64,000 nucleotides of DNA from a virus. The position numbers and the translations under genes were made by a program. The notes below the pieces were generated by a model that worked only from the letters and a program-made list of their open reading frames with translations, had not been told where the DNA came from and made no database searches. Location of the stretch: positions 1-64,000 of IMG/VR virus record IMGVR_UViG_3300019762_000006; one strand, given 5' to 3'. This document shows, piece after piece, positions 30,447-57,776 of this stretch (positions within the stretch are counted from its first letter, which is position 1; every line of letters begins with the position of its first letter).

Positions 30447-33400
30447 ATGCCAACTCAAGAAGAACTTCTAAACGCTGTATTCGTAAATACAAATAACACA
30501 CCAAAACAAACAAATAATTCACAATATGTATACGATGCAGATACACTATACCAAAATGGTAATGGGTACAGAGTAGAAGGGATAGATGCTCCTGAGATGC
30601 CATCCTATGCACTAAAGCAAGAAAGAATTGCAAAGGCACTAAAAAGCAAGCTTGGAAGATTCGTTAGTAAAGCAACAGCTGGAGAAGCTGCTAAACTAGA
30701 AGCTGAACTAAGTACACTGAACTTCAATGGGATTGACTCAGGATTCCAAGAAACAAGCTTTAATGACAATCAACTACAACCTACTTACCAAGAAACTCCA
30801 CAATCCGATTCAAAAGGGGTATATGGGAGAGATATACTCAATAACCCAGCATACCAAAATGAACTTGTGGCTAAAGGATATGCAATACCTGCGTTTGATA
30901 ACCAGACACCAGAAGGTCAAGCACTAATGCTAAATGCAAAGAAACAAAAGCTTGGGCTTTGGGCAGATCCGGAATATGCTGCTGAAATGGAAGCAGTGGC
31001 CAATAAAAGAGGTACTAGTACAGTAGAAGAGATACCTGAATACAATATACTAAGGGGCGTGGGTTCTGCTGGATTAGATGTAGCAGCTAAGGTTGGTGGA
31101 CTGATTGGTGAAACTATTGAGTCTGCTGGTGAAGGAATTGGAGTAGATGCTGTTAAAAACAGCGGAACAGCATTGCAAAATGCCTTTACAGAGTTCCAAA
31201 GAAAACAGTATGGTAAAGAGATAACTGGGTATGTAAGTAGAAATGTAGATGAGCTTAGCGCTGAAATAGACGATACAATAAAAAAAGATGGATACATGTC
31301 TGCAATAGCTAAGGCTGTGACAGACCCAAGATCACTGGAAGTACTTGCAAATAGTGTGCCTGAAATGATAGCACTTGCGGCTAGTGTTGGAGGTATGGCT
31401 GTAGCGAATGTGAACAATAACATAAATATGGCCGAAGCTGAATTAGGTAGAAAATTAGACACAAAAGAAAAGGTGTTGAGTGCTAGTGCTAGTATAGTTG
31501 GTACGTACATGGATAGATTTGGTGACAAATTGGCACTTAGTGGGATGAATCCTACTAAAGAAGCACTAAAGACTGTGATAAATAAAATGAGCCAAGAAGG
31601 TAAAAATACACTTAGTAAGAAGTATGGTAAAGAGATACTTACAATAAGTTCTGCTCCACTTAGACTAGCTAGTGCAGGTGCTATTGAAGGATTGACTGAA
31701 AAAGGTCAAACAATGCTAGAAACTGCTGCACAAACTCCTAGAGTATTCGAGGAAGGATTTACAAAAGAAGAACTAGATGAATCCAATGTTGCTGGTGTAC
31801 TTGGGGTTACTATGGGTACACAAATGGCAAGTCCAAAAGTTGTTTATGATGTAGCTACGAAAACAGTGCCAAGTCTTCCAAAGGCTAGTAAAGATATACT
31901 AGAACGAGCTACAGAGACAGAAGCACAACGTAAAGTAAGAGAAACTACTGAAGTAAGTGCTCCAATTAGAGAGGCTGCAATAGACAGTACACTAAAAGGT
32001 GACACAGACAGTGTGGTAAAATCAGCTGAGGAGATGCATGGTAAATTAGCTAAAGAGTTAGATGGAAGTGCTCCAAAGAAGTATACATACAATGTGGTAC
32101 TATCAAATGCACTGAATAGAGCACACGAGTCGAATGATGACACAGCAATAGCTAATGTGTACAAAACAATTGGTGATTTAAATAACCGAAAAGATGTAGA
32201 CTTCAAAGCATCTGAAATGGTAGATAGTAGAATGTACGAAGCTACTAAGGAGTTTCTGGACTTAGTCAACAAAAATGACTTAACAGCAACAGATAAAATG
32301 GAAGCAATAAACTTAGGTAAAAAGATAGGTGAGAATGCTACTGAACAAAGTGCTAGTAAAAGTAACATACTAACTGAAGTAAGATTGATGAAAGAGCAAT
32401 TGGAAAAAGAGAAAAAAAGCTTAAAGTCAGTTAAAGGCTCAGAAGACTTTGGTGGACCAATAGATAAGCTAATGAAAATAGTAGATGATTACTTAGAAAA
32501 TAGAGATGCTGAAAAAGTGAATGCTCAAGTAATGGACTTAGGGTACATAGAATTGGATCCCACAAGTGGTGTACTAAAAGCAGATCCAAATAGACCTGGG
32601 TTACGTGTATATGCTAAAGAGCTAGAAAAACAGATGCTAAACCCTAACACTAATAAGAACTTACTAGATAAAAAAGTAGTTGCTAGTGGACAAGTAACAA
32701 TACCAAAGCTAGCTAAATTTGCTAAGAGTAGACTAGATAAACTAAATCCATACAAAGATAATTCTGCGTACCAAACAAGCTCATTACTAAACACACTCAA
32801 GGCCGAAAATGAACAAATGAGTAACACAATAGTAGAACTAGTGAAGATTGCTAGTAAATTAGAAATAGACAAAGAAATAAAAGATAAGTATGTAGCAAAG
32901 CTAAAAGAAGCTGGTAAAAGTGCTGTAGAAGCAAATAAAGAGATGCTAAGAAGAGAAAAGTTAATAAATGACACAACTAAACCAAGTGGAAATGGACAAC
33001 TTGCGTTCCAAGTAGACCCAGATGGTACTGAATCAATAAGACTGGTAAGTGGTGAAAGTAACACAAAAGTTGCTGATGTAGTAGATGGTAAAGTTGTGCC
33101 AATTGCACAAGAACAGAATGCGGAACAAGTTGCAGATAAACCTCTAAGTAATGCTTCAATAGTTGAAAAAGCTCCAACTAAAGAATCAATGAAAGAAGAG
33201 GGTGTAAGAAATGCTAAAAATGTGACAACTGCACCAAAGCCAAAGCAAACAGTAGTGCAATGGTTAACAGCACAACTGGATGAAATGGTTGATAACCAAA
33301 AAAAGACAATGGTAGAAGCTGCTAAAGAAATAAATGACTACTTAAGTGCACAAGGATTAGATAAAGATACAATTACTAAGTACAATGTAATACTTAGAAA

Positions 33401-36400
33401 GCTGGTAAAAGATAGAGTGGATGAAAAGAAAACTCCTCTGAATAAAGTAAGAGCTAGGGTATCAGAATTGGATACAGAACTAAGTAAGCTAGTTGAAAAC
33501 GTTGAGGATATGAATATGCTAGTACACGTAAAAGAGTACTACAAAAGAAAACTTGGTGAAGTACAAGCTGAAAGAACTACATTGAATAAGGTGCTTGATA
33601 GAATGGAGGCAGAACTAACTAAGAGAACTGGTACAAATAGAGTAAGCAAGTTAAGAGAGCTTGCTGACAAACTAATAAAAGGTATGGTAAGAGCACTACA
33701 AGAAGTTAAAAAAAGAATAAATCTAGTAAACGCTGAGCACGATAGATTAACATCAGAGCTAAATGAAATATCAACAATGATAAAAACAATTGAAGAAGAA
33801 TACATAGGTACAGTAGAACCCGAGATAGAGACTAGACAAACATCAATAGGAGAAATAACAAGATATGAAGATAGTGCTTATGGACCTATGGTAGAGCTTG
33901 GTAACAAAAGAGTAAATGCTAGAAGAACCCTAAGTCCAACAGGTAAGGTAGTACAAAGTCCGTCAAGTGCGTTGAATGATGCAATGGAAGTACTAAAACA
34001 GGATAAAATAGAAGAGTTGAATGCAGAATTAACAGAACTTGCTAGTGAAGGTATAACAAGCTTAGGAGCTAAAATACTAAAAAGAAACCTAGAAAACTTC
34101 CCAATAGTGTCTCCAGTACATAAAATACTTACTAGTGGGTATGATAGTGTATTCGGAAAGCTAGAAGGAAATATATTCAAAGATGCTGATAAATTACTAG
34201 AAGTGTTACCAAAAGGATTCAAAGACTTCTTTGCGTCAGACAAAGAGAATGAACAGGCACTAATAGATAACTTCCAAACAATGAGCAAGTATATAGAAAA
34301 TACTAAAATTGGAGATATAAAAATTGGTTCAAATAGGATTAGTAAACATATAGATCAATTTGGATTGGTAATGAACCAAAAGCTTGGGTTTGTGCCAATT
34401 GAAAGACAACTAATAGTTGGTGACAGAGTAAAGATTGGTGAAACAACATACTTAATAGGTAAAATAGAAGGAGATAAAGCTACTGTAACAATCCCAGGTA
34501 AGAAAGGTACAAGCACAAAGAAACTAAGTGAGTTCCAATCAGTTAGAGAGAAACAGCCTGAATCGTTTCCAGTAGATATAATAGAACTAATAGGAACTGT
34601 GAAAGATGATAAACTGGAGATAGATGAACAAACTGAAACAATACTAAAGTTCTACACAGCTAAGATGGTAACCGATACACAAGCTATGATTGGTAAAATA
34701 CTAAGCTTCGATGAATCAGAAATGGGACTGTACTTAGGTATCACAGATCCAGATGAACAGATAAAAGTCAAACAAGATGCACAAAATGGTTTGGTAAATT
34801 CTGCAAGTGTACGGTCAGATATAGGGAATGAAGTATACCAAGCACTAGGAATAAAGTTAACAAAGAATACTCCTGAGTTTACTGAAGAATCACTAACATC
34901 TGCGTTAGGTGTACTAGTACAAGCAATAGCAGTAGATAATGGTACAATGTCAATGGATAAGCTAACTGCAGAGAAGAATACAAACTTGATACAAGTAAAC
35001 AGAGCAGCAGTAGATAAAGCACTAGAAGTAGATGGTAGAGGTACTGAACAATTAGCAAAAGCGATGAGTAAACTACAGTACTTGAATGAAGCTAGAAATA
35101 GACCCCTACCAAAAACTGCAAAGCCTAAGCGTAAGACTAGTAGAAATGTAATGAATACAAAAATACCTATGGATGCATTGAATAACGATAAACTGAATGA
35201 TATGGAACAAATAGCATATACAATTAGTCCTAAACTACAAATGTGGTTGGCTATGGATGAAACAGAAGCATTGAAAGCCAGAGGATACGTAGAAGTTGAG
35301 TCTGCTGGTCTGCATATAAGTGAACAAGATGCACAACAAGCCAGAAATGATAAATTGGTAAGAGAATGGGAAATACTTAAGATATTTGCTCAAGCAACAA
35401 AGAATAAAAAGTTTTACTTAGATTGGGGTCAAACAGTAAGTGGTAGATTCACAATACTAAATGACATACAGTACCAAGAAAGTAAACTGCATAGAGAGTT
35501 TGTGGTAGCAGACAATAGCACAGAGACAATAGATGTAAATGATGCTGATTCAAGACAAATGTTGGAAGCTAGCATACTACAAGGGTTAGACATGGACCCA
35601 GATAAGTTAAGTACAGAAACAGCTAGTGCTAACTTCAATAAACTGTTCAAAGTAACAGATAAAGGAATTGAGGTAACTGAAAAAGGGGCAGTAAAAACAG
35701 CATATGAAGCATTGAGAGCTGGTAAGGTAGATGCGGATGCAATGGCAGAAGTATTTGCTGATTCAGAGGGACATCATGGTATAAGCTCAATAGAGTTGCT
35801 AGTAGATTGGAACAAAGCAATAGTAGATGGTACTACACTAGAAACACACGCTAACTTAGAAATTGATGCGATAACAAGTGGTATGATACTAACATTACTA
35901 CAAATAGGTACAGATAAAGCAATAGAACTTGCTGAAAAAGGTGGAATATATACGGCTGATAGAGCAAAAGAACTAGAAGCATATGTAAAACATTGGTTGG
36001 GTGATGTAACATTTACTCCAGGAGCATTGATTGAAGCTGGTAAGAAACACGCATCAGCAATTGAATCTGGTACAGATAAAAAGTTGCTAAAAGGACAAGA
36101 AACTAACTTACAAAGTGATACAGTATTCAAAGACCTGTACTCAACAATTGGGGTTGGGATGATTGAAGAAGTTCAAACATATAAAGAGAGATTACTAGCA
36201 AAATCGGATAAGACTGAGTCTGAAATGAAACAACTTGCAATGTTAAATGAGATCGGAGAGTTGAACTTAAAGAATATCCGATCAATTGCAAAGAGTCCTG
36301 TAATGGTATACATATACGGAGCAACAGTAAACTCAATTAAGAAAAAGTTAACATACTCACTTGGAATAGATACACTAGTTAAGACAATAAAGAAAGCTAG

Positions 36401-38000
36401 TAAACTACTAAAAGAGGGAAAAGATGCTGGTAAAGAGTTGGGGTTTGTAGATATGTATATACCAAACAAAGTGTACAAAGATAGATTCGGTGGTAAGATT
36501 GCAGATAATATGCCAGAGTGGAAAAAGTTGCTACACTTAGATATAGATAGTGGCACAATAAAAACAGTAGGAGATGTGATCAATGCAACATTTGGAACAG
36601 CAATTGAAACAACATTCGATAGTAGACTAGGATTCGTAGATAGAAATAGGGATGCAGTAAAAACCCTAGAAATAATAGCGTTCGAAGCATACCAAGTAAG
36701 ACTGGCCGAAGAAGTAGAAAACTTGCTAAATAGTAGATACGGGGAAGCAAAGCATGAAGGTGAGTCCTACAAAATAAGTAAAGATGACTTGGTAAACATA
36801 AACAACAAACTGACTGCACAAGGGTATGGGCATGACATCGTATGGGATGAAGCAGGTAGAGATAGAGTAAACCAAACACTTAACAAGACTGGTACTAAAG
36901 GGGGATTACATTCAAGTAGTGTGACAGTTGGTGACACAAAAGTTGGAGGGCAGATAAAACAGAATAAAGCAATAGTAAATACAGGTGCTGCATCAACAAT
37001 ACCAATCCATGCAATAGATGGTAGGATGATACTAGAAACACTAAATAGAGAATTAAAAGGTCCGCTAAAGGGTAAATACCATGGTGGGAATGTGTATGAT
37101 GCTGTAGTGCTAAGTGCTAACAAAGCAATGCTAACAGACACAGCAGACTACTACAATAAGAATATGATTGAAATAGGGTTCAGTAGATCAATAGTAGCAG
37201 ACCAAATGGCCCTAGTAGAGAATATGCTAAGTACAATGAGTGACAAACAAAAAGTAAAGATGTTCAATAGATTAGGTCTAAGACCTGAAGGAGATACTAG
37301 AGAAGACTTTACAAAAGAAGTAAACAGACTTCACTTAGGAACTGGTAAAATGCTGGAGAGACTAGAATTAGCTGAAACAACGAATAAGGAAAGATTAGTA
37401 AATAGTGGTAAAGAGTACATGTCTGGACATCTGTACCAAATGGGTTCAGGAGTAGTAAATATACCTGCTAGTGAGGTAAGAGCTAAAGAGTTCCCAGCAA
37501 TAACAACACTTAAAACAATGCTAGAAAATAAGATGATTGCTGATAGAAAACAAACAGCTGAGGAATTTGCTAGTAAGACAACAGGACAGCCAGACTATGT
37601 GCTAAACTTGTATGATATAACACAGAATACACAAGTTAAGTCAAAAGCAAATATAGCACAAATGGTGAATAAAGGCGATAAGCTAAAAGTTAGTGATAAC
37701 TTAACAGAATCTCTAGGTAGCAAAGATACAGTTGAAATAGTAGGTTCAGTTGGTAGTGAGTTAAACAATAGTCAAAAGTGGTGGTTAAATAATATGAAAA
37801 ATAATATACTTGCATCAGATGCTGGTATAGTAGCTAATAGCAATACATCAGAAAAGACAATGAGTGAATCAGGTAGAGAGCTAATTGAGGGTGTGTGGGT
37901 TAAACAAAAAGAAGCTAAAAACAAGCTAGAAAAAGATATAATAACTCCAAGTGAAGCATTCAAAAAGAATGTAAATAACAAGATAGAATGTAAGGAATAG
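30447..38000 (+). CDS. virion RNA polymerase, N-terminal plus catalytic part (N4 gp50-like), with N-terminal thermonuclease domain
   Basis: T/DxxGR (TVSGR), motif A EIDAITSG, motif B RSIAKSPVMVYIYG, motif C VYDAV; SNase motifs DADT / RVEGIDAPE / YGR / GLW. Confidence 0.9.
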   Translation: MPTQEELLNAVFVNTNNTPKQTNNSQYVYDADTLYQNGNGYRVEGIDAPEMPSYALKQERIAKALKSKLGRFVSKATAGEAAKLEAELSTLNFNGIDSGFQETSFNDNQLQPTYQETPQSDSKGVYGRDILNNPAYQNELVAKGYAIPAFDNQTPEGQALMLNAKKQKLGLWADPEYAAEMEAVANKRGTSTVEEIPEYNILRGVGSAGLDVAAKVGGLIGETIESAGEGIGVDAVKNSGTALQNAFTEFQRKQYGKEITGYVSRNVDELSAEIDDTIKKDGYMSAIAKAVTDPRSLEVLANSVPEMIALAASVGGMAVANVNNNINMAEAELGRKLDTKEKVLSASASIVGTYMDRFGDKLALSGMNPTKEALKTVINKMSQEGKNTLSKKYGKEILTISSAPLRLASAGAIEGLTEKGQTMLETAAQTPRVFEEGFTKEELDESNVAGVLGVTMGTQMASPKVVYDVATKTVPSLPKASKDILERATETEAQRKVRETTEVSAPIREAAIDSTLKGDTDSVVKSAEEMHGKLAKELDGSAPKKYTYNVVLSNALNRAHESNDDTAIANVYKTIGDLNNRKDVDFKASEMVDSRMYEATKEFLDLVNKNDLTATDKMEAINLGKKIGENATEQSASKSNILTEVRLMKEQLEKEKKSLKSVKGSEDFGGPIDKLMKIVDDYLENRDAEKVNAQVMDLGYIELDPTSGVLKADPNRPGLRVYAKELEKQMLNPNTNKNLLDKKVVASGQVTIPKLAKFAKSRLDKLNPYKDNSAYQTSSLLNTLKAENEQMSNTIVELVKIASKLEIDKEIKDKYVAKLKEAGKSAVEANKEMLRREKLINDTTKPSGNGQLAFQVDPDGTESIRLVSGESNTKVADVVDGKVVPIAQEQNAEQVADKPLSNASIVEKAPTKESMKEEGVRNAKNVTTAPKPKQTVVQWLTAQLDEMVDNQKKTMVEAAKEINDYLSAQGLDKDTITKYNVILRKLVKDRVDEKKTPLNKVRARVSELDTELSKLVENVEDMNMLVHVKEYYKRKLGEVQAERTTLNKVLDRMEAELTKRTGTNRVSKLRELADKLIKGMVRALQEVKKRINLVNAEHDRLTSELNEISTMIKTIEEEYIGTVEPEIETRQTSIGEITRYEDSAYGPMVELGNKRVNARRTLSPTGKVVQSPSSALNDAMEVLKQDKIEELNAELTELASEGITSLGAKILKRNLENFPIVSPVHKILTSGYDSVFGKLEGNIFKDADKLLEVLPKGFKDFFASDKENEQALIDNFQTMSKYIENTKIGDIKIGSNRISKHIDQFGLVMNQKLGFVPIERQLIVGDRVKIGETTYLIGKIEGDKATVTIPGKKGTSTKKLSEFQSVREKQPESFPVDIIELIGTVKDDKLEIDEQTETILKFYTAKMVTDTQAMIGKILSFDESEMGLYLGITDPDEQIKVKQDAQNGLVNSASVRSDIGNEVYQALGIKLTKNTPEFTEESLTSALGVLVQAIAVDNGTMSMDKLTAEKNTNLIQVNRAAVDKALEVDGRGTEQLAKAMSKLQYLNEARNRPLPKTAKPKRKTSRNVMNTKIPMDALNNDKLNDMEQIAYTISPKLQMWLAMDETEALKARGYVEVESAGLHISEQDAQQARNDKLVREWEILKIFAQATKNKKFYLDWGQTVSGRFTILNDIQYQESKLHREFVVADNSTETIDVNDADSRQMLEASILQGLDMDPDKLSTETASANFNKLFKVTDKGIEVTEKGAVKTAYEALRAGKVDADAMAEVFADSEGHHGISSIELLVDWNKAIVDGTTLETHANLEIDAITSGMILTLLQIGTDKAIELAEKGGIYTADRAKELEAYVKHWLGDVTFTPGALIEAGKKHASAIESGTDKKLLKGQETNLQSDTVFKDLYSTIGVGMIEEVQTYKERLLAKSDKTESEMKQLAMLNEIGELNLKNIRSIAKSPVMVYIYGATVNSIKKKLTYSLGIDTLVKTIKKASKLLKEGKDAGKELGFVDMYIPNKVYKDRFGGKIADNMPEWKKLLHLDIDSGTIKTVGDVINATFGTAIETTFDSRLGFVDRNRDAVKTLEIIAFEAYQVRLAEEVENLLNSRYGEAKHEGESYKISKDDLVNINNKLTAQGYGHDIVWDEAGRDRVNQTLNKTGTKGGLHSSSVTVGDTKVGGQIKQNKAIVNTGAASTIPIHAIDGRMILETLNRELKGPLKGKYHGGNVYDAVVLSANKAMLTDTADYYNKNMIEIGFSRSIVADQMALVENMLSTMSDKQKVKMFNRLGLRPEGDTREDFTKEVNRLHLGTGKMLERLELAETTNKERLVNSGKEYMSGHLYQMGSGVVNIPASEVRAKEFPAITTLKTMLENKMIADRKQTAEEFASKTTGQPDYVLNLYDITQNTQVKSKANIAQMVNKGDKLKVSDNLTESLGSKDTVEIVGSVGSELNNSQKWWLNNMKNNILASDAGIVANSNTSEKTMSESGRELIEGVWVKQKEAKNKLEKDIITPSEAFKKNVNNKIECKE

Positions 38001-38002
38001 AT

Positions 38003-41000
38003 ATGGGTTGTTCAGCACAAGATCAAATAGCAGGCTACAAAACAATAAATAAAAAGTTAAGAGAATTAAATCCAAATGTAGATCCAATAGGACTGCAGTT
38101 TGGTATAAACAAGTACTGGCTAGGCTTAGAAAATAATATAATGACTGATGCTGAAAAAGATGTATACAACACATTAGTAAAGCAAACAGAAGGGATAGCA
38201 TTAATAAACTTAGGCGGAACTAAACAATTGCAAGAACAGTTGGTGTTCGTTAAAGACATAGGTAAAGAGTATGTAATACATTTAGAAAGTGGTAAAAACT
38301 ACACATTCGAAAAAGGTAAAGCACAAAGTAATCCAACAAGAGCTGGTAGAACAGTAATGATGCCTGCAATGGAATTGACTAAAACATATCAAAATTCTGT
38401 AAAAGGTAGTGACCAAAACACACAAATAGGAGAAACTGAAGCAGATAAATTCATAGAACAAGAAGTAATAGATCTAGGCACAACACTAACAGATAAGTTC
38501 ATGGAAATGGCTGAGATGAATCAGGAAAGTTCAGGGTTAAAAGAACTAAGAAACAAAATGAAGATAATTGGTGAGTATGAAGTAAAGATAAATGAGTACA
38601 ATGCAAGAAATGAAGAAGCTCCAGCAAAGTTAATGGAAGACTACAACAAAACCTACGATGAGGCTGAAGCAATACAAGCAACACTGACAGAGTTTGAAGT
38701 ACTGACATCAACTGTGTTAAATACATACCAAGTAACAATGACTAATTTAGGCACTGGTGAACTAAAGATGCAAATGTTTGAGAATGCAAATAGCCAAACT
38801 GCGGCATCTATAGATTTGCGAACAAATGAAATGAAAGCTAGATGGAATAAAATGTCAAGAATAACAAACTTGAGTGAAGCGTTCCTACATGAGATAAACC
38901 ACAAGATGTCAAGTCACGTGTTCGATGCAAATGTACAACTAACAAGACTAATGAAAGACTTGCGAGATAGTGCAATAAATAGTGGTGTAACCTATGAACT
39001 GTTTCTAGACAAGATTGCTGATCCAACAGAACAAGAAATAGAAATAGCAAAGATGAAGTTTAAGTATGTGTTTGACAAAACAGCAGATATAGAAGAGTTC
39101 TACGCATATGCAACAACAAATGAGCAAGTATACAATGCGATAAAAGATGTGAAGATATCAATACCGCTAATAAAAGACCTTGAAATAGACCCTAGTAAAC
39201 CAAGCTCAATAAAAAAGGTACTAAATGCACTAATAAAAACAGTAAATACAATATGGACAACGCTAAGTGGAAGAGGAAAACGTGGTGGTCAACTAGTAGC
39301 AGAAATGGTAACAACAATAGCTAAACTAGATGCAGAAATGATGCAACAAAAAATGGTAGATGAGAATGAACAGCCTGGAGTAAGTAGCTACGCAAGAGCT
39401 AAAATGAATAGCATAGATGAGCTAATAGAACCTGTGGTAAAGAAAGTGGGAGATTGGTCAGAGAAGTTAAGTGAAGCTGGACCAAAAGATGTAAGTAAGC
39501 AAATAGCCAAAATACCAGTACTAAATGAACTAATGAATACTGGAATAACCCAATACTTGTGGAGAGCGGTAACGCAAGATACAACAACAGAGGATGTGGC
39601 AGATATGTACGCAGTGTTTAGACATAGTAAGCAAGTGGTAGAGAAACATACAGCAGACATTAGAAATGGGGTTAAGTCAGTAGCAACTGAAATGTTCAAA
39701 GACACAGACAAAACAACAAAAGACGCAATAACAAAAGTAGTACTAAGTGGAGATATGGCACAGTTCACAGCAAGTGAGATACAAGAGTACCTAAATGAGC
39801 CTGCTAAAATACAAGAAGAAATAGAAAAGCTAACAAAAATAGTACATTTGGGAGCAAGTAAAGAACTAGTAAAAAGTAGGGATAAGCAAATAGATGGACT
39901 AGCTGAGTACTTAGTAAGTGGTAAAACAGTAGCACATGATCAACAAATAAATGCAAATAATATAGCAGCAAATATGCAAATAGCGCATAGAGTGCCAAAA
40001 AGAAAGATGCCTGAAAGACCAAGTAAAGAATTAATCGATACGATAGATAAAATAGTGTCCCTAAAAGTGCTCCAAAAGTCCGATGAAGTACACACTAAAG
40101 CAATAAAAGAGTTGGTGTCTAATAAAGACGGAGTAGAATTGCTAGATAAAACAATAAATATGTATAGAGGATACATAGATAACATGAGAGCAGATGCAAC
40201 AATAGATGCACATGATCCAATACCAAAAGGATACACAAGACCAGCAGATGGACTGCTAAGATACGAGTTAATCCCTGAAGATGAAGTAAAAGCTCAGGAA
40301 AGTGTGCTAATGAGATTGGTAAATGATAAACCGTACACAATAGTAGAAGGTAAAAAATACTACTTAATGACGGGTAGAACTAAGTCAGTAGGGTTCAGTG
40401 AAGGTGCTATTGGGTTAATATCACATACAACTGAAGGTATACCCCTAAGTTCACTAATAAGAAAAAACAATGAAATGAAAGGAAATAAAGGACTAATAGA
40501 TGGGGAACTAAGAGCTAAAACAAAACAGATAGTAGAAGCAATTAGAAATTCAAAAAATGGTAGAATAAATAAGTTTGCAATGATAGAAGGACAAACACTA
40601 GTACCAGTGTACAACCACAGAAATGAGATAGTAGACTACAGAATACAGTTGAATAACCTAGAAAAAGAGATGTACTTGCCAGATAGAGAAACAGAGATAG
40701 AAGATATACTAAGTAACACATTCAGTAGAAGTATAAAAACTTCACTAACAGCCACAGAGAACAAAAGAGTGGTAGATACAATAATAGAAAACAGTGGTAG
40801 AGGAGTACTAGAAAATCCAGATGACTACGTGCTAGTAGAAGAATATACTGAAGAAGATAAAATGAATGGTGTTAAGCGTGAAAAAAGGCATGATAGATGG
40901 GAATACTTACCAGACCACACAAAAGACTACATATATCAAAGAACTAGCAATAAAGGTATACTAGTACACAAAGACTTCGTAGAATTAATGACTGGTGAAA

Positions 41001-42007
41001 AAGATGTGACGATTGGGAACTTTGCAAAGTTTGGGTTTGATATGAAACAACACCCTGTAGCAAAAGCTAGATTAATGGCATTGGAAGCCTATATAACTGA
41101 AATACTAAGCTATGTGAAGCAAGCAATGGTTGTGCTAAATGGGGATATACTAGTTGGTAACCAAGTGAGTAATGCAATGGTAGCAGCAAGTCACGGAATA
41201 AACCCAGTAAAATACACTAAAAAGTTCAAACAGAGATGGCAACAATTAAATGACTACAATGAAAAAGTACAAATGTTATCAGAGTTAGAAGTTAAGCAAA
41301 TGGCTGGTGAAAATGTTGGGTTAGAGATAAGACAACTGAAGAAACAGTTAGAAGGTAATATATGGGATGAATTGGTAAAAGATGGTCAATACACTGCGTT
41401 AGTGGAAGACGTAAATATAGAAGCTAAACTAGATGGACAAATTGCAACAATGGTACAACAACAAATAGATAAAAGTAACTTCAAAGGAATAATAGAAGGA
41501 GTTAGAAATGGTCTGTATATAGATAAAACAACAGCACTGTATCAAACAATGGCAAAATCAGTACACTATGGTGATGCGATAACAAGACAAATAATAAAAG
41601 AAGAATTGGAAGAAAAAGCAATAAAGAGAGAAGGAGAGTTAACAGAAGATGTAAAAAAAGATATACTAAACTACCTAGATCAGTTGCTAGTAAACTACGG
41701 ATACACAATGAACCGGTGGTGGAAGTACTCAGAGAGAGTGGGAGGGTTGTTCTTTATGCGATACTACATGGGACAAGCAAAAGCTATAATGAGTATGGCA
41801 AAAAAGAGTCCAACAAGGACAGCACTACTGCAAGGTGTGCAAAAAGTGACTGGTGTGGATATAGCAGACCCAATAGACACATATACCAATAGTGGTATAG
41901 ATGGAGTAACTTATAGGCATATGTTTACAGAAGCTCCTTACTTATTAGCAGAACCTAACATACTTGATCTTATACCCGACATGTCCGCGGCATTTGTAAT
42001 GAGGTAG
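38003..42007 (+). CDS. vRNAP C-terminal part as a separate ORF, with zincin-like domain
   Basis: FLHEINH and EEFYAYATTN; INANNIA, LVPVYN, HYGDAITR, LVNY resemble N4-type vRNAP C-terminal regions. Confidence 0.8.
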   Translation: MGCSAQDQIAGYKTINKKLRELNPNVDPIGLQFGINKYWLGLENNIMTDAEKDVYNTLVKQTEGIALINLGGTKQLQEQLVFVKDIGKEYVIHLESGKNYTFEKGKAQSNPTRAGRTVMMPAMELTKTYQNSVKGSDQNTQIGETEADKFIEQEVIDLGTTLTDKFMEMAEMNQESSGLKELRNKMKIIGEYEVKINEYNARNEEAPAKLMEDYNKTYDEAEAIQATLTEFEVLTSTVLNTYQVTMTNLGTGELKMQMFENANSQTAASIDLRTNEMKARWNKMSRITNLSEAFLHEINHKMSSHVFDANVQLTRLMKDLRDSAINSGVTYELFLDKIADPTEQEIEIAKMKFKYVFDKTADIEEFYAYATTNEQVYNAIKDVKISIPLIKDLEIDPSKPSSIKKVLNALIKTVNTIWTTLSGRGKRGGQLVAEMVTTIAKLDAEMMQQKMVDENEQPGVSSYARAKMNSIDELIEPVVKKVGDWSEKLSEAGPKDVSKQIAKIPVLNELMNTGITQYLWRAVTQDTTTEDVADMYAVFRHSKQVVEKHTADIRNGVKSVATEMFKDTDKTTKDAITKVVLSGDMAQFTASEIQEYLNEPAKIQEEIEKLTKIVHLGASKELVKSRDKQIDGLAEYLVSGKTVAHDQQINANNIAANMQIAHRVPKRKMPERPSKELIDTIDKIVSLKVLQKSDEVHTKAIKELVSNKDGVELLDKTINMYRGYIDNMRADATIDAHDPIPKGYTRPADGLLRYELIPEDEVKAQESVLMRLVNDKPYTIVEGKKYYLMTGRTKSVGFSEGAIGLISHTTEGIPLSSLIRKNNEMKGNKGLIDGELRAKTKQIVEAIRNSKNGRINKFAMIEGQTLVPVYNHRNEIVDYRIQLNNLEKEMYLPDRETEIEDILSNTFSRSIKTSLTATENKRVVDTIIENSGRGVLENPDDYVLVEEYTEEDKMNGVKREKRHDRWEYLPDHTKDYIYQRTSNKGILVHKDFVELMTGEKDVTIGNFAKFGFDMKQHPVAKARLMALEAYITEILSYVKQAMVVLNGDILVGNQVSNAMVAASHGINPVKYTKKFKQRWQQLNDYNEKVQMLSELEVKQMAGENVGLEIRQLKKQLEGNIWDELVKDGQYTALVEDVNIEAKLDGQIATMVQQQIDKSNFKGIIEGVRNGLYIDKTTALYQTMAKSVHYGDAITRQIIKEELEEKAIKREGELTEDVKKDILNYLDQLLVNYGYTMNRWWKYSERVGGLFFMRYYMGQAKAIMSMAKKSPTRTALLQGVQKVTGVDIADPIDTYTNSGIDGVTYRHMFTEAPYLLAEPNILDLIPDMSAAFVMR

Positions 42008-52957: not shown

Positions 52958-54455
52958 ATAGTTCCTTTAAATAATTTGCATTTATTAGTTTATGTCTATG
53001 CCTTGTGATTGAGACAAAGTATAAACATAACTCAGCTCTACGGTCTTCTTCAGTACCTTTAAAACTCTTTGATAATGCGTCTTTAACTGCTTTATCCATA
53101 TCTGGGTCAAGTTCGATAATATCCCGAGTGGATCCCTTAGAGGTATGGGCAGTCATAAGTTGTAAATCACAAGGTGTCTTTTGATGCTCTTCTGCACTTT
53201 CAGATGCTGCAATAATATCTTCTTTACCAAACTTAAACATAAGTTGGATAGAAGAATATGTAGCTGTGTCTAAATTATCCAAGTTCAATAGGTAGTTGTA
53301 TAATCCAATGCGTTCCCTAGTTGATTGGGGTAATCTACCATAGGAATCAACCATCTCCTGGAATGGCTTAAGTTCTGGATTCTTCTGTGCGAACCCTGGT
53401 TTAGCATAAATAACAGCCAATGGTAATTGAAACATATGCTTAAGCTTAAGTTTGCTAGACAGATGGTAAGGTGTTCCACATTTGTTAAGTTCAATCATCT
53501 TTGCAATTAGTGAAGCATTAGTACGAGTTAAATAAGCTTTAGTAACTGGTTTGACATCTTCTGGATAAACCATACCTTCAAATATTGCATCAGATTCCAA
53601 ATGCTTACGTAAGAATGCTTGAATAGCTGGAGCATAAGATTGGTCAACTCTAAAAGATTGCGATAAATGAAGCACTTTGGCTTCTGGGAATCTTGAGAAT
53701 CCATCAATAAGCTTCATAAAGCTAAATATACGCTGATTCTGGTCTCCAACTAATACTTTCTGAGTTGCTGGAATTGCTTGTATAATGTCCAATGCCATCG
53801 CTGACATATCCTGAGCTTCGTCAATAAGTAATCTATCTACTGGTTTAAGTTTAATAGTACCACGCATAACTAGTATGTGAAATAGCTTAAGATAAAATGA
53901 ATGGGTAATAGCCATCTTACCAGTTGCCATCAGATTAAGAATTTGCTTAACTGCTGGAATTAGGTTGAACTGAAATGAGTCATCCTCAATAGATACTACA
54001 TAAGAGTCTACATTGAGAAATCCTGACAAACAATACTCGTCAATAATTCTGAGAATTTCTGGGTCTTTACCAAAAGGCCTACGAACAGTCTTTGGTATGT
54101 CCATCCAAGTTAGGTACTTTTTAAGAGTTCCTAAATTGTAAGCTCCTCCTACTGTGTATGAATAAGCAAATGAATGCAAAGTTGAAACAGTTGCGTTAGT
54201 TGAAAAGGCTTGCTTAGCTTCTTTAGAAGCCATGTTACCAAACACCAAATAACGTACAGAAGCTTTGGGTTCTATTCGTTTGTAACGTGCTATTGCTTCA
54301 GTAAGGCTTGTAGTCTTTGAAGCACCTGCTGTAGCTCGGATTGCTAGTTCAGAGTTAGTTGGGTTTGCAATCTCTTCAAAGATTTCTAATTGTTGGTCAG
54401 ACCAAGTAAATGACATTGGAGTTCCTTTGGTGATTTGTGAGTACTTACTTTCCAT
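52932..54455 (-). CDS. UvrD-like superfamily 1 helicase
   Basis: ATAGASKTT, IDEAQD, VGDQNQRI, LSQSFR, TAHTSKG. Confidence 0.9.
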   Translation of the reverse strand: MESKYSQITKGTPMSFTWSDQQLEIFEEIANPTNSELAIRATAGASKTTSLTEAIARYKRIEPKASVRYLVFGNMASKEAKQAFSTNATVSTLHSFAYSYTVGGAYNLGTLKKYLTWMDIPKTVRRPFGKDPEILRIIDEYCLSGFLNVDSYVVSIEDDSFQFNLIPAVKQILNLMATGKMAITHSFYLKLFHILVMRGTIKLKPVDRLLIDEAQDMSAMALDIIQAIPATQKVLVGDQNQRIFSFMKLIDGFSRFPEAKVLHLSQSFRVDQSYAPAIQAFLRKHLESDAIFEGMVYPEDVKPVTKAYLTRTNASLIAKMIELNKCGTPYHLSSKLKLKHMFQLPLAVIYAKPGFAQKNPELKPFQEMVDSYGRLPQSTRERIGLYNYLLNLDNLDTATYSSIQLMFKFGKEDIIAASESAEEHQKTPCDLQLMTAHTSKGSTRDIIELDPDMDKAVKDALSKSFKGTEEDRRAELCLYFVSITRHRHKLINANYLKELYDDIIQNN

Positions 54456-54739
54456 AGAAAGAGGTCTCTATTAAAAACAGGTAAAAATTCTGTATGAATC
54501 CACTCAATAAGTTCTGGTGTAACTTTAGTGTTAGCTGTATTATGCCACTTAAAATGTGTTGGGCGTTTGCCACCTCTACTAATACCTCTAATAGATTGCA
54601 GAGGATGAACATGTACAGATGGTATATTTTCAGGCCAAAAGAGTTCAATATAAGGAATAGTATTCTGGTCAAACACATTAAAAGTATATTTATTAAATGC
54701 CTGTTGCGTAAAAGGGTGTTTATCTGTAGTTAGAGTCAT
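54386..54739 (-). CDS. hypothetical protein (117 aa)
   Basis: AAGGA SD; overlaps the helicase 5' end. Confidence 0.5.
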   Translation of the reverse strand: MTLTTDKHPFTQQAFNKYTFNVFDQNTIPYIELFWPENIPSVHVHPLQSIRGISRGGKRPTHFKWHNTANTKVTPELIEWIHTEFLPVFNRDLFLWKVSTHKSPKELQCHLLGLTNN

Positions 54740-54763: not shown

Positions 54764-55059
54764 AAGTGCTTAGGGCAGTACTGTGGAAAAAAATTAAAAT
54801 TCAGTACTACACTAAACACTCTAATGGTTTGGTGTCATTAGGTTAAAGTCCTTCACGATGACGGCACGCACTACCTAAGATGATGTTTCCTAAGTAGTAG
54901 ACTTCGATATATATCTGGAGATTCCCATTAAAGATTTAAGTCTATTAATTGTAGTTAGACTGGGAGTAACTAACTCACCAAAGAATGTACTGGTACCGAG
55001 CCGACATGTTTCAGTCAATAAAGTTGTGACCTTTATAAAGCGTTCGTAATGCACTCATT
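54764..55059 (-). ncRNA. candidate structured ncRNA region (tRNA-like domain, multibranch domain, 20-bp hairpin)
   Basis: No long ORF; several stems whose G-U pairs work only on the minus strand; one domain ends in ACCA. Confidence 0.55.
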
Positions 55060-55067
55060 GCTAAGTT

Positions 55068-55090
55068 AAAACACTCCCGAAGGAATGTTT
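55068..55090 (-). terminator. rho-independent terminator with UUCG loop
   Basis: Minus strand AAACATTCC-TTCG-GGAGTGTTTT. Confidence 0.65.
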
Positions 55091-55092
55091 AA

Positions 55093-55416
55093 TTATTCTG
55101 CTTCAGGCTCAACATACTCATTAGTAGGTTGTTCAGTAGGTTCTTCTATAACCTCTGGCTCAAGTGATTTAATTGGTCCAGTAGGTGCTGTTTCTCTAGG
55201 CTGTTTCAAGATAACTTGAGTTGCTCCAGATTCGTCTGTATCGCCTAATGTAATGTTAGTAAACTCTGGGAATTGTGGGAACTTACCTTCTAATAAAGGA
55301 TTAAGTGCTCGTTTAATTGCTGCAGAAGATTCTGGATCTGATAATGCTTCAGCAATAAGTGTGTTTAATTCAGTTTTGTTAAGACTCAGTGAGATTTGTT
55401 GTTTTGTAATTTCCAT
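55093..55416 (-). CDS. hypothetical protein (likely start MEITKQQ)
   Basis: AAGGA SD precedes the internal Met at 55416; acidic tail. Confidence 0.6.
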   Translation of the reverse strand: MEITKQQISLSLNKTELNTLIAEALSDPESSAAIKRALNPLLEGKFPQFPEFTNITLGDTDESGATQVILKQPRETAPTGPIKSLEPEVIEEPTEQPTNEYVEPEAE

Positions 55417-55438
55417 TTGTTGGGCTTTCCTTATGTAT

Positions 55439-55648
55439 TTAATTTGATTGATCATTTGAGATCACCATAGATTTGTCTAGTTCAATAAGTGCTTTTCTAA
55501 GTTCAACTGACATAGAGTCAATAAGCTTAGAACAATCTCTAATAACTTTACTAGAGTCCTTGCTAGTACATACTAAATGTGCTGCAATTGCCCCAAGAGT
55601 TCCTTCAAGAACTTCCTGGTACTTTGTTAGAACTTCTGGTTGTGTCAT
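55439..55648 (-). CDS. small helical protein (69 aa)
   Basis: ATGA overlap; SK.SSK.IR...ELRK. Confidence 0.6.
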   Translation of the reverse strand: MTQPEVLTKYQEVLEGTLGAIAAHLVCTSKDSSKVIRDCSKLIDSMSVELRKALIELDKSMVISNDQSN

Positions 55649-57233: not shown

Positions 57234-57776
57234 TTAAACCTTTAATTTATCAAAAATAGTGTAGATAAAGTCTTCGTGTTCTTTATGTAAGTTTATCTTA
57301 GCTTTATTTGCTTCATAGTACTTTTCTGCAGTATCTCCAAATTTGTAACCCATAGCAGTCCAGTCAACTAGCATATGAACTAAATAACGTTCAACTAATC
57401 CTGGTTTTGTATTAATATCCTCTGATGGTAAGTTGTTAATAAACTCACAATGATGTTCATTGTTTGTATAATGATGTTCCCAGGCCTTTTTGAAGTTTGA
57501 GTTGTCTTCATTACTTGGTATATGTAGTGGAAAAAATTTATCACGGTATTGTGTAAACTCCTCAGCACTAAATTTGCTAACATCGTGATAACAAATTTCT
57601 TGACGTAGTTTGTGCCACGTACAGTCGTCACCAACCCAAGGCATTCCATCACAAGCTTCAGATAGTTCCTGAAAAGCTTTTCTAATATTGTTGAAATGCT
57701 CTTCAAGATAATCTAAATATGCTCTAGTTCTGTCAATGTATTCTTGACCTACCATATGTTTCTGCTCAATAAACAT
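57234..57776 (-). CDS. DUF5662-like HD-type protein
   Basis: EEH..HDVSKFS.EEF..AWEHHY.NNEHH..HMLVDW.AM. Confidence 0.7.
   Translation of the reverse strand: MFIEQKHMVGQEYIDRTRAYLDYLEEHFNNIRKAFQELSEACDGMPWVGDDCTWHKLRQEICYHDVSKFSAEEFTQYRDKFFPLHIPSNEDNSNFKKAWEHHYTNNEHHCEFINNLPSEDINTKPGLVERYLVHMLVDWTAMGYKFGDTAEKYYEANKAKINLHKEHEDFIYTIFDKLKV

Follow-up and report, generated by a model that had tools for sequence, protein, structure and literature searches.

A candidate structured RNA in an accessory insertion ahead of the replication genes of an N4-like phage

Results

The window that we analyzed is a stretch of 64,000 nt (positions 1 to 64,000 of IMGVR_UViG_3300019762_000006) and forms part of a 90-kb IMG/VR virus record. 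The virus encodes a virion RNA polymerase split over two adjacent plus-strand ORFs (30447-38000 and 38003-42007, of 2517 and 1334 aa, both matching phrog_2206) and is therefore an (uncultured) N4-like phage; judged by the helicase, the Alteromonas AD45 phages come closest to it among cultured phages, with no more than 31% identity. A gap of 353 nt separates an upstream 120-aa ORF without assigned function (55093-55455) from a downstream 117-aa ORF (54386-54739), after which come a UvrD-type helicase, an ATP-dependent ligase, an HU-like protein and the large subunit of ribonucleotide reductase (nrdA). An earlier note on this DNA had described an unrecognised multibranch RNA of 155 nt (54982-54828, minus strand) in this gap, and its position, on the gene strand upstream of the helicase, ligase, HU and nrdA genes, was correctly given. 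No sigma-70-like promoter or intrinsic terminator was called in the gap. A candidate sigma-70 promoter, TTGACT/TACATT, was rejected, its spacing being 23 nt and no promoter call falling within the gap. ARAGORN detected no tRNA or tmRNA gene in the window or in the 90-kb genome. The DNA sequencing runs that contain the flagged stretch are all microbial-mat metagenomes, and there was no RNA sequencing run among the runs listed.

The 155 nt make up the 3' two-thirds of a non-coding element of ~247 nt on the minus strand (55068-54822); they lie inside the element, but the element is longer and reaches upstream. Copies were sought in IMG/VR, the JGI metagenomes, bacterial and archaeal genomes and, by blastn, in cultured phages. 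Only two further copies were found, one in IMGVR_UViG_3300010935_000101 (L002; the same phage as G002) and one in the JGI contig Ga0193963_1001081 (L133). Two nhmmer matches, E = 7.5e-54 and E = 1.4e-14, fall at the equivalent gene position. All three copies directly follow a homolog of the 120-aa gene. The L002 helicase is 66% identical to that of the window phage; for L133, where 13.8 kb of contig was available for gene comparison, the helicase is 42% and the upstream gene 55% identical. Pattern scans of IMG/VR returned 14, 10, 6, 2, and 4 stretches, the L002 contig being the sole true copy; blocks A and B (see below) served as patterns in IMG/VR only, where further scans used proteins, plus one helicase alignment. 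The JGI metagenome scan returned 36 stretches, with one true copy (L133), and the 8 stretches of bacterial and archaeal genomes that match an 18-nt word of the 3' domain include no true copy. Blastn of the gap and the surrounding 10 kb against 50,697 cultured-phage records gave no match. A block A match in L158 sits within an opposite-strand ORF and was discarded as chance. Of two mat runs compared with the stretch, one may be where the present DNA came from; the second mat run supplied a 215-nt contig, ~96% alike, which covers 54926-55140 only. The element is single-copy in each genome searched.

The three copies, which measure 212-237 nt from block A to the 3' core, are conserved in blocks. 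Blocks A and B are each identical at 15-16 of 17 positions and the 39-nt 3' core at 35-38 of 39 (38/39 to L133 and 35/39 to L002); the middle has 50-57 matches over 69-114 aligned columns and the tip of the first stem 8-41 matches over 58-74. MAFFT alignments of the full length and of the 3' domain misplaced L133, and both are excluded from the pair counts given here. No ORF is common to the three copies: the overlapping ORFs, of 54 aa (54890-55054) in the window, 50 aa in L002, and 80 aa in L133, differ in frame, start, extent, and stop positions. One frame does read RA(V/G)IVKDFN in all three copies, within a block that hardly varies in nucleotide sequence. In the most conserved block nucleotide change is nearly absent, which is not a coding pattern between phages so distant.

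Rfam 15 gave zero matches at gathering score in the whole window, in agreement with the earlier note, which could assign no known family by eye; the families covered include riboswitches, hammerhead, twister, pistol, hatchet, and HDV-like ribozymes, tmRNA, RNase P, 6S, group I and II introns, GOLLD, and ROOL. A permissive search with the three copies returned, as best matches, unrelated microRNA, snoRNA, and frameshift models at 13-24 bits (cut-offs of 35-101), and no family recurred across all three. By sequence comparison, then, the flagged stretch is conserved, non-coding, and uncatalogued. The family is undescribed in Rfam 15 and in the literature consulted, including the available part of PMC10690425, whose supplementary motif tables may contain the element. 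The proposal of a novel non-coding RNA thus stands as to conservation, lack of coding, and absence from Rfam 15, while the fold given for it is only partly right.

All the helix strands that the earlier note listed, including UCCCA and UGGGA, occur in the minus-strand sequence. The multibranch fold itself was not borne out. Its closing stem, UUUGGUG (54982-54976) with CACCAAA (54834-54828), has 7/7 pairs in the window but 5/7 in L002 and 4/7 in L133; UUUGGUG has two possible partners in each copy, and block A is the better one in all three. The helix AGUUAG (54975-54970)/CUAACU is present in the window but has 5/6 pairs in L002 and no counterpart in L133, and the proposed loop-loop pseudoknot of UCCCA with UGGGA is reduced to 3/5 pairs in L002 and absent in L133. 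UAGACUU/AAGUCUA occurs in the window, and the relatives keep its 5-bp core, UAGAY/GUCUA, all 5 pairs of which are retained in the three copies. The remaining two hairpins were well chosen: the 11-bp hairpin (P4) is kept in L002 and has 4 bp and UUCG in L133, and GUCAU/AUGAC (P5) is kept in both relatives. Because UUUGGUG and AGUUAG pair with upstream sequence (55069-55052), the boundaries of the 155 nt split the element in two.

This upstream pairing constitutes the predicted Stem I. Its 5' arm is block A (UUAACUUAGCAAUGAGUG, 55052-55069, minus strand), the element beginning at 55068, and its 3' arm is block B (CAUUCUUUGGUGAGUUAG, 54970-54987, minus strand), which contains UUUGGUG and AGUUAG. 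Block A pairs with 54987-54970 at 16/18 positions in each copy; in all, Stem I has 18 pairs, and its two mismatches (G.G and U.U) recur in the three copies. Across its alignment 98.1% of cells are paired, as against 33-44% with the partner slid, and the unpaired cell C55051.A54988 becomes U-A in the second mat run, which has U at 55051. In two pairs both partners have changed (U.G/U-A to G.U, and U-A to C-G), in two more a single partner has, and 13/18 pairs are invariant. In a shuffle control of covariation with the three sequences, 52/500 shuffles reach the observed value, which is not significant. Folding of the isolated region gives Stem I as the lowest-energy fold in all three copies, and L002 and L133 also favor it in full context, with pair probabilities of 0.91-1.00. 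In the full context of the window, the lowest-energy fold (-58.3 kcal/mol) lacks Stem I, and forcing it (-52.9 kcal/mol) costs 5.4 kcal/mol.

A covariance model of Stem I, which was built from the gene strand, scores 106 and 54 bits on that strand versus 34 and 22 on the opposite one, a contrast weakened by the origin of the model; searched against 435 kb of related phage DNA, it matches its own three sequences only. A Watson-Crick-only repeat finder reports Stem I in L002 only, which indicates that the helices depend on G-U pairs. Blocks A and B also constitute a DNA inverted repeat, both members of which lie in the 5' half of the element. By eye, block A (UUUAACUUAGCAAUGA, 55070-55054) and the end of the P5 loop (UUUAACCUA--AUGA, 54847-54834) look like direct partial repeats on the minus strand, so that block B could also pair in part with the P5 loop.

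The tip of Stem I (54988-55051, minus strand) is variable: its length is 64 nt in the window and 58 nt in L002, and L133 has a tip of just 10 nt with a CGCA loop; the window tip matches L002 at 41/74 aligned columns and L133 at 10/64, and 5/9 differences of the second mat run fall within it. The tRNA-like fold that another note had read here (54991-55059) lies in this unconserved tip and was rejected: ARAGORN finds no tRNA, and CCA follows the stem in the window only. One and the same element contains both the tRNA-like fold and the multibranch RNA.

Downstream of block B lies a variable middle (54903-54969, minus strand), which measures 66 nt in the window and holds UCCCA, CUAACU, UAGAC (54944-54940), and UGGGA. 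Its length is 69 nt in L002 and 112 nt in L133, with identity at 57/69 and 50/114 aligned columns, respectively, and a 3-bp mini-hairpin, G(A/U)U-AUAU-A(U/A)C, can be read in it by eye. There follow GUCUA (54902-54898) and P4, together spanning 54870-54902 on the minus strand. P4 in the window (ACUACUUAGGA-AACAUCA-UCUUAGGUAGU, 54898-54870) has 11 pairs, two of them G-U, between arms at 54898-54888 and 54880-54870, and a pair probability of 0.96. In L002 a U-A pair is replaced by C-G, with one U.U and one bulged A, and in L133 the position is occupied by the 4-bp hairpin ACUC-UUCG-GAGU.

The near-invariant 3' domain (54834-54869, minus strand) consists of the linker GCGUGCC (54869-54863) and P5, in which GUCAU (54862-54858) and AUGAC (54838-54834) enclose a 19-nt loop, CGUGAAGGACUUUAACCUA (54857-54839). 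The loop is invariant across the three copies, and one U-A pair of the stem is G-U in L002. Complements of the loop in phage genomes are limited to matches of 9-11 nt, about as many as estimated by chance. The loop carries a Shine-Dalgarno-like GAAGGA 10 nt ahead of an AUG located in the P5 stem; the ORFs that start there have 5, 20, and 8 codons in the three phages, are unconserved, and extend into the flanking repeat. GAAGGA with its AUG (54857-54816, minus strand) may be the remnant of a start site or else act as a decoy ribosome-binding site. The element ends in a 3' tail (ACCAAACCAUUA, 54822-54833, minus strand) that includes most of CACCAAA and varies in length and sequence among the three copies.

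Folding energy was compared with that of shuffled sequences. For the 155 nt the energy is -35.5 kcal/mol, and their shuffles give -28.7 +/- 4.0 (z = -1.71, with 10/200 shuffles as good); the homologous stretches have z of -0.88 (L002) and -0.36 (L133), and a 276-nt version z = -1.04. Folding energy alone does not support the fold. Of the two signs by which the earlier note had proposed to judge the RNA, energy is no better than in shuffles, but pairs are kept through some compensatory changes. Three sequences hold too little covariation for statistics, and the structure is provisional.

The element is flanked by two hairpins that lie outside it. Hairpin 1 (AAACAUUCC-UUCG-GGAGUGUUU, 55069-55090, minus strand) begins 2 nt beyond the 120-aa gene's stop codon and looks like a terminator; its stem has a U.G to C-G change in the second mat run. 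Its equivalent follows the homologous gene in relatives, or one further small ORF (L025), and block A begins 0-3 nt after hairpin 1 in all three copies. On the other side, extended hairpin 2 (GAGUGUUUAG.UGUAGUACUG, an 18-nt U-rich loop, then CAGUACUGC.CCUAAGCACU(U); 54764-54821, minus strand) has 10 + 9 pairs in the window. The same long hairpin precedes the next gene in L002, L133, and L025, and also in L017, L022, and L023 if an alternative pairing read by eye is counted. In the window, the repeat GAGTGTTT occurs on the left at 55076-55069, in the 3' arm of hairpin 1, and on the right at 54821-54814, at the start of extended hairpin 2. The flanking direct repeats are of 8 nt in the window, 6 nt (AGTGTT) in L002, and 18 nt, with 17 of 18 identical, in L133.

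In folding, the right-hand copy of the repeat is the outer 5' arm of extended hairpin 2. Element-free phages use the 3' arm of hairpin 1 as this outer arm (read by eye in L017 and L022), and the duplicated arm thus allows both hairpins to form once the element separates them. The repeat may have been produced at insertion or retained by selection. A generic repeated boundary sequence was rejected as an explanation, the hairpin 1 sequences being unique in the window genome and in G009. In this phage group, the 3' arm of hairpin 1 has two potential partners, its own 5' arm and a similar stretch on the far side of hairpin 2. Pairing with the latter makes a helix of ~19-20 bp with a U-rich loop, directly before the ribosome-binding site of the next gene, and is seen at 55090-54764 of the window and in L017 (2845-2940), L022 (2150-2260), L023 (3025-3135), and L025 (1738-1832). 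Its stems vary in sequence between phages while the pairing is kept, and the alternative could be a switch or a processing site.

Among 19 related IMG/VR records found via the helicase, a set that does not include the record of L133, one has the element (G002) and 18 do not; 3 other matches in these records, of 14-20 nt with E of 0.14-0.25, were taken as chance. Four of the element-free records are at least 90% complete. Beyond these records, 33 helicase proteins with identities of 66-74% were among the matches listed, the majority on Logan and ENA contigs. Element-free relatives have a short gap with a UUCG-type hairpin 1, then hairpin 2 with its U-rich loop, and then a ribosome-binding site. 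The empty site is seen in one of the 18, G009, a near-identical sister phage of L133 (79-94% protein identity): G009 has one copy of the 18-nt hairpin sequence, and L133 has two, which flank the element. From these comparisons, the element is to all appearances an accessory insertion, carried by few phages and bracketed by a duplicated hairpin arm.

The stretch from the 120-aa gene to the helicase is a hotspot for accessory cargo. Comparison of L133 (4898-6850) with G009 (L025, 1500-3500) shows different small ORFs between these two genes, and the 89-aa and 204-aa ORFs of L133 have no match in the window genome, G002, or G009. Elsewhere in the window, a 180-aa ORF (57234-57776, minus strand) has a 53% identical counterpart in L133 (2122-2814) and none in G002 or G009, and is another patchy accessory gene.

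Discussion

We consider that the flagged stretch is part of a single-copy accessory insertion of ~247 nt that most likely gives rise to a structured RNA from the gene strand, a reading to which we assign a probability of about 0.5. The best description of the element is an accessory (moron-like) structured RNA gene of a new family. The identity of the 3' core at 38/39 positions spans phages whose helicases are 42% identical. The retention of P4 as either 11 bp or 4 bp with UUCG, and the change of U-A to G-U in P5, suggest that the hairpins are maintained. Most paired positions are invariant, so that the conservation may reflect recent spread just as well as selection.

The element would be co-transcribed with the replication-gene operon; no promoter of its own was found. 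It might then be excised at the flanking helices of ~20 bp by double-strand-specific RNases, as happens at hairpins of the phage T7 type, and the released RNA may act in trans, with the invariant P5 loop as the part that contacts a protein or another nucleic acid. Excision and action in trans are steps that we purely infer. No protein partner common to the three contigs occurs within the 13.8 kb of L133. A role in host takeover or anti-defence would be a guess from the sporadic distribution.

Another hypothesis is that the element is a cis-acting leader of the replication operon, that is, a riboswitch, an attenuator, or a translational operator, which could work by switching between Stem I and UUUGGUG/CACCAAA or by exposing and hiding the GAAGGA and AUG of P5. 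Its place on the gene strand ahead of helicase, ligase, HU, and nrdA, the two possible partners of UUUGGUG in each copy, and the spacing of 10 nt between GAAGGA in the loop and AUG in the stem would all suit such a leader. However, the first gene downstream is the 117-aa ORF in the window, a 24-codon remnant followed by paralogs in L002, and the unrelated 89-aa ORF in L133, and 18/19 relatives found through the same helicase do without the element; differing downstream genes and operon-bearing relatives without the element argue against a gene-specific leader. The riboswitch for helicase-ligase-HU-nrdAB proposed in the earlier note is not upheld for the same reasons; the ribozyme also named there is neither favored nor disfavored by these results. 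In addition, the conserved hairpin 2 and the ribosome-binding site come after the insertion and are present in phages that lack it, the ORFs after the AUG (5, 20, and 8 codons) are unconserved, no terminator-like site was called, and no riboswitch family matches. We therefore regard a leader as unlikely.

The sporadic occurrence among close relatives, the empty site in a sister phage, and the flanking direct repeats could also point to a selfish small mobile DNA element (MITE-like, REPIN-like, or of another kind), in which the conserved parts would be recognition sites for an enzyme and the RNA would have no function. Conserved blocks flanking variable stretches, the inverted repeats of blocks A and B, and a 3' domain so nearly identical between distant phages as to suggest recent transfer fit this view as well. 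We nevertheless judge it distinctly improbable. The element is single-copy in each genome searched, and the 8 bacterial stretches with the 18-nt word of the 3' domain contain no copy. Its termini do not form an inverted repeat (blocks A and B are both in the 5' half), and repeats of 8, 6, and 18 nt are unlike the work of one transposase; as the duplicated arm completes extended hairpin 2, the repeat may be kept for structure. The G-U-dependent, strand-specific helices and the exchange of P4 for a UUCG hairpin point to RNA, and no transposase gene is common to the three contigs, of which L133 offers 13.8 kb. It is very unlikely, in our estimate, that we are dealing with a new kind of small mobile RNA/DNA element, which would target the base of a terminator-like hairpin and copy the hairpin arm on insertion, in an RNA- or enzyme-mediated manner, with the 3' domain and Stem I needed for mobility or catalysis.

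A DNA-level signal of the N4 type (a hairpin promoter, a single-strand priming site, or a replication origin) is a similarly remote reading. N4-like phages use DNA hairpins as early promoters and LUZ7 uses them as middle promoters, according to the available part of PMC9163698, and the element lies within the replication module and has long inverted repeats and AT-rich runs. However, the promoter hairpins reported there, with loops of 3-4 nt and stems of at least 6 bp, fit hairpin 1 and not an element of 247 nt (PMC9163698, available part). The motifs occur nowhere else in the 90-kb genome, related phages manage without the element, and the template strand would show C.A mismatches in place of its G-U pairs. 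That the region is a small protein-coding gene or a functionless chance similarity is extremely unlikely, since the three overlapping ORFs share no frame, start, extent, or stop positions, the common RA(V/G)IVKDFN has no consistent start and falls where the nucleotide sequence hardly changes, and nhmmer E values such as those at the equivalent gene position are not attainable by chance.

If real, the accessory RNA would add an uncatalogued family to the few non-coding RNAs of N4-type phages. Its conservation pattern is unusual, with near-frozen blocks between phages whose proteins are ~40-55% identical and intervening stretches that drift. The filled site of L133 and the empty site of G009 make a clean pair for studying how non-coding cargo enters phage genomes. 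The element is rare, copies being known from three contigs to date. What it offers at present is a defined candidate on which to map RNA ends and probe structure.

Among known systems, group IIC introns insert just after terminator hairpins, and the element likewise lies directly 3' of the terminator-like hairpin 1. At 212-237 nt it is too short for the six-domain ribozyme, of several hundred nt with a domain V, and no group II model matches, so that such an intron was rejected. MITEs and REPINs were rejected as well, the element having no terminal inverted repeats at its two ends, one copy per genome, and no fixed target duplication.

The intergenic RNase III sites of T7 are simple hairpins. 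Stem I and extended hairpin 2 resemble them in being irregular, mismatched helices of ~18-20 bp, intergenic and on the transcribed strand, and as modeled both would have the length of a two-turn irregular helix (18 pairs and 2 mismatches in Stem I, 10 + 9 pairs in extended hairpin 2). In the T7 sites no conserved 3' domain is attached, and their sequence is not invariant among distant phages.

Small stable RNAs whose function is unexplained occur in T4 (species 1 and 2, rnaC and rnaD) and T5; they are structured, 100-250 nt long, dispensable, and unevenly distributed, and sit in tRNA clusters, often with tRNA-like ends. The likeness is one of description only, and the window genome, unlike theirs, has no tRNA gene and holds the element in a replication module. 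Phage morons are accessory genes between two conserved genes, usually protein genes with their own promoter and terminator. As with morons, close relatives differ in having the element, and it sits beside a terminator-like hairpin in a variable stretch enclosed by conserved genes, but its cargo is non-coding and neither promoter nor terminator was found.

A parallel in setting is found in LUZ7, an N4-like Pseudomonas phage, for which the available part of PMC9163698 describes candidate small RNAs, sRNA1-3, between orf69 and orf70, hairpins as middle promoters, and one small RNA that probably arises by processing. The LUZ7 RNAs rest on RNA data and our element on comparison only (PMC9163698, available part); the window phage is only distantly related to LUZ7, and the element has no blastn match in cultured phages. 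Like the RNAs described in that part of PMC9163698, the element is non-coding, shorter than 250 nt, and placed in an intergenic gap of an N4-type phage.
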